A stretch of DNA of 64,000 bases from Macrostomum lignano. Its lineage: Eukaryota. Location: assembly GCA_002269645.1 (NCBI GenBank), contig NIVC01000471.1, positions 186,001 through 250,000 on the forward strand. The letters are read 5' to 3'. Below the pieces are notes generated by a model that was not told the origin of the DNA, made no database searches, and was given only the letters and a program-made list of their open reading frames with translations. Positions 26,201 through 29,200 of the stretch are shown here, piece by piece; within the stretch, counting starts at the first letter, position 1; each line of letters starts with the position of its first letter. The position numbers and the translations under genes were made by a program.

Positions 26201-29200
26201 CATTAGCTTACCCAAACTTCTTATGCTTTGCCACCCCGGGAGAAAGGCTTAGCAAGTGTTGTGTCACTACACGTGATCGAAACAGCCCCCTAAGAACGCT
26301 CTGCAGTGATCGAGCCTGGAGATGGCGTCAGCCCACTGACCGGACTGACTCCGTAACTGAGCGTGGGGTCGCGTCGAGGTAAGGTAGTCAGTCCGTCCCT
26401 GAGGTGTACAGTACCCACTTCGCACGAGGCCCAAATAAGTAATGAATGCAGGCGCAGGTCTTACTTTGATTTCCAATCTGCTCGACGATGGGCAAGGCAG
26501 CGAATTCGTCAATTTGTAGAACTGAGATTCTTGCTGTTGAAGTTTGTAGGTTCTGAAGAGTAGTCTAGTGTCAGGCGTCAACAAGCGCGCTCGCCCTGCC
26601 CACCGCCAGCAATTCTCTATTTATTTGGACTGCCTGGCGTAAGCCCTAGGGTCTCACGCCAGACAGCATTATCAAAACCCAACTTATTGGCCAATCACCA
26701 ATTGACAAGGGCTAACAAAAGGGGGGAGAGAGGGCCAGACCAGCCAATCCGGCTGGGTACGCATAAAGAAAAGGGGGCAGAGCATAAGAGCTGATACACA
26801 ACTGGGGGGGGGGGTTAGCGCAGGCAGAAATGGGTGGGGGGCTGACACAAACAGAATGGGGGGGTGGCGCAGGCACGCGGCCAGGAGGGGTGGGAGTGCA
26901 GTGCCGGGCGCACTTGACCGAGAGCCAGAGATTGCTCATCGGTGCAAGCGCACCCGGGCACAACACCCTCCCCCTCCACGAAAAGAGGGTTCATACCATA
27001 GACGAAGGACTGTGCAATGACGACATGAGCATTTGTTATTGTCAGCTGGCATTTTACACACAGTTAAATATTATAAAATTCACGCGCAGCCCAGCCAGTC
27101 GACCAGGTAGAGCCCCGTCGCTTCGCTCCTCAGCAAGCCAGGCCGCCGCCTTCCGGACATCAGTCGGCTTGCCCGGGTTTCCCGCGAATGGCGCTGACGA
27201 AGCGACTAGCAGCCGGTCGGAAGGTATCGCTGCGACGCGTTGGGCATGCCATCGGCTGTTGACGACCCGGGCGGTGACTTCAAATTTCAGTCTTGGCAAC
27301 GACGCTAGGTACAGGCTGAGAGTGTCTTTGGGCCAGTCGGAAGATTCGACAACTAGAATGCGACAGTTTGCAAAGTCCGACGCCACTAGCAACCGTAAGA
27401 ACTGGTGCCAGGCCGAGCCACCGGGTTCGACTGGACTACGTCTACGCTCTCGCAAACGAACCAGGAGGGGTAGATCCCGTTTCTTGGCTAGCCGAACCTG
27501 TAGCTCCAGGGCTGCCATTTGTTGCTCCACACTGATCGCAGTATTCTGGACGTCCAACTCGGCTTCGCCGACAGCCACTACCCTTGGCCATTCACCCGCT
27601 ATGAAACGCTGTAGGTCGGCGGCCAGCGTCGTCATGAGCGGTGCCGCTGACGCCCTCAATCCGAGCGCAAAGTGGATCCGAGAGTCACAGATGAGCCGGG
27701 CAGTTGCGGGGTTTGACGGTCTCAAATAGAATGGTGAATTCACTACCGACACACAGGCTTCTACACCGTCCAGGAACAGATCCCCTGACCATGAAAATAG
27801 CCGGAGCAAGAAGGCATGCGCGTCTAATAGTCCCGTGACCTGGCTCGCTTCTGGGGCGCTTGGACTAGCTGGGCGCTCCTCGGGACCGACGGCATCTAGG
27901 TCTTCTTGAGGGCATTCTAGGTCGAGGATATCCGCTTCATCGACGGCCTTCTCTGCCTGGTCTTCGGACTTCGAGTCCGGGGCCACGAGTACCGTTAGCT
28001 CTCGGAGTTTTGACAGGAGTGCCCCGCCGTTCAGCAGGCCCATTTTCTTGATGCATGTCATTACAAATCCGATTGATGCAGTCAGCGCTTCGTTCGACAG
28101 CACTCGAATGCCTCGCCTAGATGACCCTGGGCGGCGTTTTCAAGGTGACACATCAGACGCTATGAAACTCAGCGCAACCCCTAGAGAATCGGAGACCCAT
28201 CGCCGAGGTTCCAGGCCTGCCGAAAGGAACAGTTCTTCCAGTCCAGAGATACATTCTTGCGCCTGAGCGATCCGACTGATCCGCAGATGCTGGGCCAGGT
28301 GATTCCGGAGACTTCTGTACCTGGCCTCAATCGATTCAGGGACTCTTGGTGGACTTGGTCGCGCGACCATTAAGACTCCACCCGCCGGCGCAATTGGGGT
28401 CGCATCAACGGCGGGAGGTTCGTCTTCATCGTCACTGATGACCACGATCCCCATACTTTCGAGTCCGGCTCGTATTTCGTCCGGAAAACTGACTCCGGGT
28501 GGCGGGCTGAAGAACTGCGCGTACGATAGCGTGTTGCTCAGGGCTGCTTCACCGAATTTGTCGTATAGCGCTCTATAAAACGGGTCGCCCAGGACTGAAT
28601 ACGCGAACACCACCCGCTGGTAGGCCCCCGTGCCTCCGACGCCTACCTTGTCGGGGTGAAGTAGTAGTGAGCGCCGACGGAAGGCCACCTTTATGGCTCT
28701 CGGCGAAGCTGATTGAGCTACGCCAAGCAGGTCGTACAGATTCGACACTGCAAGGCCAGCGTTCAACTTGTAGGCACCCAAAAAAATGGAACTTGCTAGA
28801 CGCATGAAAATACAATTATAACTGTATGAAAATACGAACCCATACTGTACTTAGCAACTTGGAGGCGCGATGAGAAGGGTGAGAATTAAACATTCCAGAG
28901 CGATTGATAGACAGATTGGTACAGATTAATTGAGGATTGGGTCTCCGAATCGACGTGGTGCAACTCCTCGATTCGCACGAACAGAGCGACGATTCAATTC
29001 TTGCTCGGGAGGAGCGGCTACAAGAGGCTGATGGTGTGTGACGCCATGAGTGAAATGATGGTGAAAGATTGAATAATGATGAGGTTAGTTAATAGTTAAT
29101 AATTAGGCCCTTAGGCAAATAATCAGGCTATTAAGCGGCTTCACTATTGAGTAAAAGTACAGCAAAAGATACGGTATCACAATTGGCTCAGCTCTCTAAT

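Follow-up and report, generated by a model that had tools for sequence, protein, structure and literature searches.

Extra open reading frames (ORFs) in long terminal repeat (LTR) retrotransposons are known, and almost none of them has a proposed handle on the host. Among the closest described systems are the LTR elements of bdelloid rotifers, whose third ORF (ORF3) is not an env gene and encodes, for example, a DEDDy exonuclease or a GDSL esterase (excerpts of PMC5408684). Here, we focus on a reading frame of Macrostomum lignano at positions 27054–28805 of a 64,000-nucleotide stretch (contig NIVC01000471.1, 186,001 to 250,000; the whole stretch is referred to as the window), which joins a J-domain to a degenerate TatD-like barrel. 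This unit is almost certainly the ORF3 of a Ty3/gypsy LTR retrotransposon, as full copies have the frame downstream of gag and of a pol with protease, reverse transcriptase, RNase H and integrase (PR-RT-RH-IN), and upstream of a polypurine tract (PPT) and the 3′ LTR. Like the flatworm elements, those of rotifers are of the Ty3/gypsy type, carry a captured, enzyme-derived ORF3 after pol, are patchily distributed on the tree and include a 3′–5′ exonuclease fold. The rotifer proteins have intact catalytic residues and no J-domain described in the excerpts, whereas the flatworm ORF3 has a degenerate TatD appended to a J-domain core and is under clear purifying selection.

Other known systems share single features with this ORF3. 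The giant planarian elements Burro and GYPSM1 are also flatworm gypsy elements with host-regulatory domains, including a SUMO-like one; these domains (MATH, BIR, BCL2, ankyrin, env) lie in a giant ORF1 polyprotein, and that paper names no J-domain or TatD (PMC6431247). The polyomavirus large T antigen is likewise parasite-encoded, with an N-terminal J-domain that contains the HPD motif, followed by a disordered linker and folded domains, and it engages Hsc70 through this J-domain (excerpts of PMC11720896). However, it belongs to a DNA virus and its Hsc70 binding is proven, whereas ORF3 contains no LxCxE motif (none in 10 ORF3 types) and no helicase or origin-binding domain. The barrel resembles the TatD/YcfH/YjjV/TATDN class II nucleases (excerpts of PMC10085689) in profile, fold, D-x-H start, GE glutamate and RLLV motif. 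It differs from them in that most metal ligands are replaced and in being mobile and fused behind J and helical domains. In the same host, Ty3/Mdg4 families of the same superfamily have been described (Mag, CsRN1, Gmr1/Osvaldo and Mdg3/Micropia; PMC12801592), and the ORF3 elements are probably among them. The text of that paper mentions neither DnaJ nor TatD, and its five supplements contain no TatD and list DnaJ only on rows of host-type transcripts, the long files being possibly incomplete. The literature searched on retrotransposon extra ORFs and TatD, which was mostly open-access and did not cover Repbase, described no LTR element whose ORF3 contains a J-domain or TatD.

Genome searches with the unit returned 22 matches at the DNA level and 50 at the protein level. 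The pol order after gag was identified by Pfam in three loci (L032, L040 and L041), and full copies have LTRs with TGTTG...CAACA ends, 4-bp target duplications, a PPT and a primer-binding site (TGGTGCCGTGACC) that we take to be of the tRNA-His type. Whole-LTR pairs were present in seven of the ten locus pairs tested, with one further partial pair and none in the other two. The 709-bp LTR of the window stands at both ends of full copies (LTR identity 97.6–99.9%), and pair identity is 87% in family B and 97.6–99.9% for five to six copies of families A and C. By resemblance, the gypsy clade in question may be Gmr1/Osvaldo. A sequence-only reading of this DNA had noted that the unit lacks the host's strong bias in GC content at third codon positions (GC3) and had suggested mobile-element or viral cargo. 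The bias is indeed missing: GC3 is 0.58 in the unit and 0.52–0.53 in the element's own pol and gag, whereas the ferlin exons on either side have values of 0.79 and 0.91. The cargo is that of a mobile element, and a viral origin is not supported.

As that reading had it, the J-domain and TatD-like ORFs share one minus-strand frame, which spans 583 codons, is interrupted by one TGA only and runs antisense within a ferlin intron (25336–31221). Pfam identifies DnaJ upstream of the stop and TatD_DNase downstream of it. The barrel begins only near codon 322. An AlphaFold2 model of the joined unit was built with an X at the stop and a five-row alignment. At a mean pLDDT of 51, all 12 Foldseek matches of this model at E ≤ 0.001 were TatD structures (including 1zzm, 3gg7, 2gzx and 1yix at E ~1e-4), with J-domains lower in the list, which agrees with the proposed architecture. 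That both halves form one fused unit is borne out by family C, where 10 of 22 loci have open frames of ~558 codons.

The barrel has the profile and TIM-barrel fold of TatD nucleases but lacks their two-metal site (HxH or (G/A)xN, Glu, His, His, Asp). In a comparison of ligand motifs with four bacterial TatDs, the HxH position reads DAHAF in families A and B and DAKAY in family C. Replacements affect the second His of HxH, the His of GxHP and of IIH, and the Asp of ETD, and at two of these positions the new residue is mostly Arg or Lys; the IIH His is R or Q, ETD is ASS or TSA, and no His is found near the LHC position. The GE glutamate is invariant in A, B and C, and the first HxH His is kept in A and B. 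The ligand losses were therefore described correctly at the outset, except that the glutamate is not the sole survivor and that the GxHP His (R/K) has to be added to the replacements. Judged by these motifs, a loss of nuclease activity is likely. Human TATDN1 and TATDN3 depend on the Glu, and in TATDN3, a class II enzyme, the Asp makes a 30-fold difference, whereas TATDN1 remains largely active when a single His is mutated (excerpts of PMC10085689). The barrels of A, B and C have a net charge of +5 to +6, compared with −4 to −14 for the four bacterial TatDs. Two host TatD exons (L071 and L072), which by motif are presumably TATDN1-like and TATDN3-like, respectively, scored far below the bacterial four against the element's TatD profile; the four were the best hits, and the exons are fragments.

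The internal TGA is a copy-specific mutation that arose after insertion. Among six aligned family A loci it occurs in two, the window and L023, which represent one insertion, and the other four (L024–L027), one older insertion with flanks shared in two of three pairs tested, have a sense codon at the site. Both family B copies and family C also have a sense codon there, and 10 of 22 family C loci match all 556–558 residues without a stop. As the 3′ flanks differ in all eight of these ten open loci that are readable there, the open loci are separate insertions. Of the two explanations offered originally, a point mutation in this copy thus agrees with the other copies spanning the site. The second, programmed readthrough, by which the stop would determine how much J protein is made relative to the J–TatD fusion, is barely conceivable. 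The stop is in frame, and neither half is otherwise interrupted in the window or its duplicate locus, but open halves are expected because the stump in the window is only ~5% diverged from other family A copies. In addition, every other copy that spans the site has a sense codon, the stop is conserved in no working copy, and it falls inside the helical domain rather than at a domain border.

The J-domain ORF3 is not restricted to families A, B and C. Weak J-domain matches led to five further families (D–H) with gag, pol and an ORF3 of 283–328 residues without TatD. Among 20 loci examined, 16 had the J match behind pol pieces, and one had a J-domain ORF3 in a stretch that lacked pol; the remaining three proved to be normal DnaJ genes of the host. 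At least eight families share a core of three parts: a J-domain that has the same extension throughout, an acidic linker and the helical domain. Add-ons to this core are TatD in A, B and C and a chromodomain in G (PF00385, E 1e-12), which lies inside the linker, as it does in the outside protein P0016. Seven of eight families have the HPD motif, which is CPA in family C; the J-domains of D–H score 48–65 bits against the profile and that of C 18 bits, below the cut-off. The earlier description of an Hsp70 co-chaperone tethered to a pseudo-nuclease therefore fits families A and B but not C, where HPD is lost, and the core is shared by families without TatD.

Trees of the reverse transcriptase and RNase H (RT-RH) region included this genome's elements only, with long outgroup branches that meet and with L130 omitted as fragmented. 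In these trees, all ORF3 bearers formed one group (98/99 in one tree; SH-aLRT 98 in another). Families A, B and C formed a subgroup (99/98), and TatD was thus probably added once. Several ORF3-less loci (L117–L119, L120, L127 and L129) nest among ORF3 bearers, so ORF3 has also been lost within the group. Six family A loci (L028–L032 and L039) share one deletion of most of ORF3 (window-equivalent ~27592–28806); they have long gag/pol frames and LTR pairs of 99.6–99.9% identity in two tested, and form a young ORF3-less subfamily. The family A locus L032 and the family B locus L084 are close in RT-RH (dS 0.20) and far apart in gag, integrase (dS saturated) and ORF3, so that A and B have recombined in RT-RH. 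One clade keeps a J-domain ORF3 across families whose reverse transcriptases are only 55–62% alike, with modules swapped. Profiles of the J, helical and TatD domains had no match in 15 further loci, and both controls matched. After pol, the sister lineage of C (L117–L119 and L130) carries a different, decaying stretch of ~250 codons that does not match the ORF3 profiles. A family H element (L127:952-3240, minus strand; G000:C1827) has a 763-codon open frame in place of the J-domain ORF3. This element is 99% identical to L108 over gag-pol, and its frame matches RVT_1 (E 5e-4). By its motifs, we take the frame to be a Penelope-type reverse transcriptase with a GIY-YIG-like end; it either inserted there as a nested element or replaced ORF3 as cargo.

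A profile search of 1.84 billion representative proteins gave 10 matches, namely two M. lignano models, six Logan or JGI proteins and two unrelated repeats. The last two (P0017 and P0018) were rejected as relatives, being helical-repeat proteins. The outside proteins are 34–50% identical to this genome's loci, with one at 76%; for an outside protein compared with the whole genome, the best match was 46%. All five outside proteins examined for it contain HPD, and the ORF3 family probably exists in other organisms. Database proteins that are 100% identical to a related ORF of this genome are labelled Macrostomum lignano. A word-indexed protein search with the family C ORF3 found no matches among 8000 candidates, the same search with the TatD alignment found only four bacterial-type TatDs (28–30%), and the ESM Atlas returned nothing. 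Public M. lignano gene models P0007–P0010 fuse ORF3 to pol or host exons under the names 'J domain-containing' or 'CCHC-type', and several public 'J domain-containing' models of this species are thus transposon pieces.

To describe selection, ratios of non-synonymous to synonymous divergence (dN/dS) were obtained by Nei-Gojobori counting; they are rough, as dS is near saturation for A versus B. Between A and B (dS ~2), dN/dS is 0.08 in the J part and 0.11 in the remainder, within which TatD has 0.13. Three diverged family C copies gave pairwise values of 0.26–0.33, and ORF3 pairs within families D, E and H 0.09–0.32. In contrast, the TatD remnant in ORF3-deleted family A copies (three tested) has a dN/dS of 0.6–1.2. 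ORF3 is thus, by these counts, under purifying selection, with a dN/dS of ~0.1–0.3 across copies and not ~1. It diverges faster than integrase (dN 0.23 vs 0.09).

Apart from the J-domain and barrel, two parts of ORF3 may bear on its function. The helical domain of family C, modelled alone, reached a pLDDT of 80 and a pTM of 0.74. It had no Foldseek match at E ≤ 0.001 in PDB or BFVD, and a profile search returned designed repeats only. Its best structural match was the CarH cobalamin-binding cap (VIA Z 8.4, root-mean-square deviation 2.8, 81 aligned), in a range common for helical bundles. The bundle, like the barrel, is positively charged. The linker contains a G-hydrophobic-ISDD[DE] motif in families A, B, E, E2 and F, which is absent from C and G. 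The published description of a SUMO-interacting motif (SIM) with a CK2-type serine fits this motif (excerpts of PMC12751080). ISDD[DE] after a hydrophobic run occurs in 5 of 10 ORF3 types and in none of seven pol proteins, a pattern chosen after it had been seen; the same post hoc choice applies to its local-shuffle chance of 0.001–0.008 each. The motif alignment excludes one wrong-frame row. A model of the SIM-like segment with this genome's SUMO (score 0.26, mark 0.34) speaks neither for nor against binding. The genome also holds seven single-exon SUMO-like genes (L132–L138), arranged in inverted pairs on three contigs.

We favour a reading in which intact ORF3 serves as an accessory adaptor: it would bring the host's Hsp70 to silencing complexes marked with SUMO, and its predicted-inactive TatD barrel would be an add-on that binds nucleic acid. 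We regard this reading as close to, though short of, an even chance. ORF3 would be expressed from a spliced subgenomic RNA through the TTGCAG hexamer before the J-domain. In family B no in-frame ATG is found upstream of TTGCAG. A look-up for RNA data sets with the family C ORF3 listed none. In contigs of three runs presumed to be RNA (depth 5–15), the family C element showed no joint to the candidate acceptor; such contigs drop rare forms, and DNA carry-over was uncontrolled. No heat-shock elements were found in the LTRs of families A and C. The protein is predicted to be soluble, without a membrane segment. Its J-domain would call Hsp70, by analogy with the polyomavirus T antigen, the linker motif would bind SUMO, and this motif, the helical bundle and the optional chromodomain or barrel would aim ORF3 at its target. 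The protein may be nuclear, and the chromodomain in family G and P0016 points to chromatin. In Drosophila, the silencing of transposons guided by piRNAs depends on SUMO (excerpts of 10.1101/533091), and by analogy silencing complexes may be the likeliest target, although this is tentative, as is an anti-silencing mechanism as such. Family C, with neither HPD nor motif, would work without Hsp70, probably via barrel and bundle alone, and shows that these two are kept for their own sake. Lineages without ORF3 indicate that it is accessory or supplied in trans. Taken at its widest, the idea is unlikely in full: a clade of animal LTR retrotransposons with their own J-protein family in the env slot, as modular anti-silencing adaptors that would dock on SUMOylated heterochromatin machinery, be aimed by an exchangeable chromodomain or pseudo-TatD, and use Hsp70 to dismantle the silencing complex, in the way that the polyomavirus T antigen acts on its targets. 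In M. lignano, both transgenes and LTR reporters are functional (PMC12801592), and together with the young intact copies this makes retrotransposon counter-silencing in animals directly testable.

Several observations weigh against the SUMO–Hsp70 adaptor. A SIM rule set in advance matched 4 of 10 ORF3 types, with P values of 0.06 or higher throughout, and also three of seven pol proteins; among the outside proteins it matched one of five, and the looser pattern three of five. Both HPD (CPA) and the SIM-like motif have been lost from family C, which has more open copies than the other TatD families. ORF3 is dispensable, as the six family A loci with young LTRs share its deletion, and the sister lineage of family C is multi-copy without it. 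The link between SUMO and silencing is known from fly and worm, not from M. lignano. Finally, the barrel may retain residual nuclease activity, because it still has the essential Glu and because mutation of one His has little effect on TATDN1 (excerpts of PMC10085689). Alternatively, the barrel could be a decoy or a residual nuclease directed against the host's nucleases or its repair where the element integrates, with the J-domain secondary in A–C. The invariant bridging Glu in A, B and C and the retention of the barrel under selection in family C, while HPD was lost, suit this idea. We nevertheless consider it improbable, as five of eight families have no TatD and the second HxH His, the IIH His and the ETD Asp, which matters 30-fold in TATDN3 (excerpts of PMC10085689), are gone.

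In the main rival to the SUMO–Hsp70 adaptor, ORF3 would act in the cytoplasm as a co-chaperone of the particle that the element forms, and would bring Hsp70 to Gag-Pol for assembly or uncoating while the TatD barrel binds or shields RNA or cDNA ends. HPD in seven of eight families and the positive barrel and bundle are consistent with it, TatD enzymes act on single-stranded DNA 3′ ends (excerpts of PMC10085689), and the rotifer DEDDy exonucleases have been proposed to act on element RNA ends (excerpts of PMC5408684). It is nonetheless a rather unlikely explanation, because the family G chromodomain and the SIM-like motif suit the nucleus better, relatives without ORF3 are multi-copy, and ORF3 outpaces integrase as a host-facing protein would. 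The env position and the candidate splice acceptor would also fit an env-like entry protein. For this there is next to no likelihood, since all recognisable domains are intracellular, the highest mean hydropathy of any 19-residue window in ten ORF3 types is 1.49, with no membrane segment, and Pfam returned no env family. The repeated loss or replacement of ORF3, and a window copy that is itself most likely dead, might lastly be taken as signs of neutral captured cargo without function. This is very improbable: each of the three domains has a dN/dS of ~0.1, with dS saturated, the frame is open in 15 family D loci and in 10 of the 22 loci of family C, and outside relatives retain HPD at 34–50% identity.

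The window copy is a stump of ~2.8 kb (26257–29043) that consists of the last 38 pol codons, ORF3, PPT and 3′ LTR; the 5′ LTR, gag and most of pol are deleted. Having no promoter within itself, it is most likely dead. The stump splits the LTR of an outer element (30510–29044 and 26256–25541), and intact outer copies run uninterrupted across the junction. We take the outer element's primer-binding site (TGGCAGCGGTGGGAT) to be of the tRNA-Leu type. The identical nest lies in the duplicate ferlin locus L023 (99.8% identity over 2.4 kb). The exons that flank the host intron contain Pfam dsrm_Ferlin and C2 domains. The features are listed in the table below.

Table. Features of the ORF3 stump, the outer element and the host intron, in window coordinates.
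Feature	Position	Strand	Details
Ferlin intron that hosts the nested insertions	25336..31221	+	Phase 0, GT...AG; flanking exons join as SDIYVR|GWLAG
Primer-binding site of outer LTR element, unrelated to the ORF3 element	25520..25534	-	TGGCAGCGGTGGGAT, right after its LTR end
Outer high-copy element, 3′ part of 2.2-kb LTR	25541..26256	-	Continuous with 29044-30510 in uninterrupted copies L062, L064, L067-L070
3′ LTR of ORF3-bearing Ty3/gypsy element	26257..26965	-	709 bp, TGTTG...CAACA
Polypurine tract	26966..26979	-	GTGGAGGGGGAGGG, adjoins 3′ LTR
ORF3 pseudogene: J-domain, acidic linker, helical domain, linker, pseudo-TatD	27054..28805	-	583 codons, one TGA; open homologues in families C-H
TatD-like barrel without most metal ligands	27057..27842	-	Pfam PF01026, E 1e-8, 35 bits (cut-off 27); Foldseek; ligand alignment
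Helical bundle, conserved	27990..28337	-	Codons ~157-272; aligned across families A-H
Premature TGA	28140..28142	-	Codon 222; this insertion and duplicate locus only
SIM-like motif (10 residues) in acidic linker	28419..28448	-	G-hydrophobic-ISDD common to families A, B, E, F
J-domain	28560..28742	-	Pfam PF00226, E 6e-13, 49 bits (cut-off 27.8); HPD at 28650-28658
TTGCAG, candidate splice acceptor immediately before J-domain	28748..28753	-	Same hexamer in same place in A, B, C
Pol remnant, final 38 codons and stop; left edge of stump	28926..29043	-	Matches pol end of full copies
Outer element LTR, 5′ part	29044..30510	-	40 scored genomic matches at 85-100%; junction comparison

The outer LTR has the same orientation as the stump and contains a TATTTAA box and a GGTAAGT donor (29592–29598 and 29267–29273, minus strand) upstream of the candidate acceptor. 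By this arrangement, transcription of the stump could start from a borrowed promoter, antisense to ferlin. Elsewhere in the window, a second Ty3/gypsy element (35482–39408, plus strand) has a single open gag-pol frame of 1308 codons, and a third (39627–41923, minus strand) has a broken pol on the opposite strand; both fall outside the ORF3 clade in the RT-RH trees. The ferlin introns are packed with short tandem arrays (22851–23862, 30511–30743 and 32780–33200, with units of ~34, 30 and 22 bases), and another intron-like stretch contains an open frame of 156 codons (21816–22286, plus strand).

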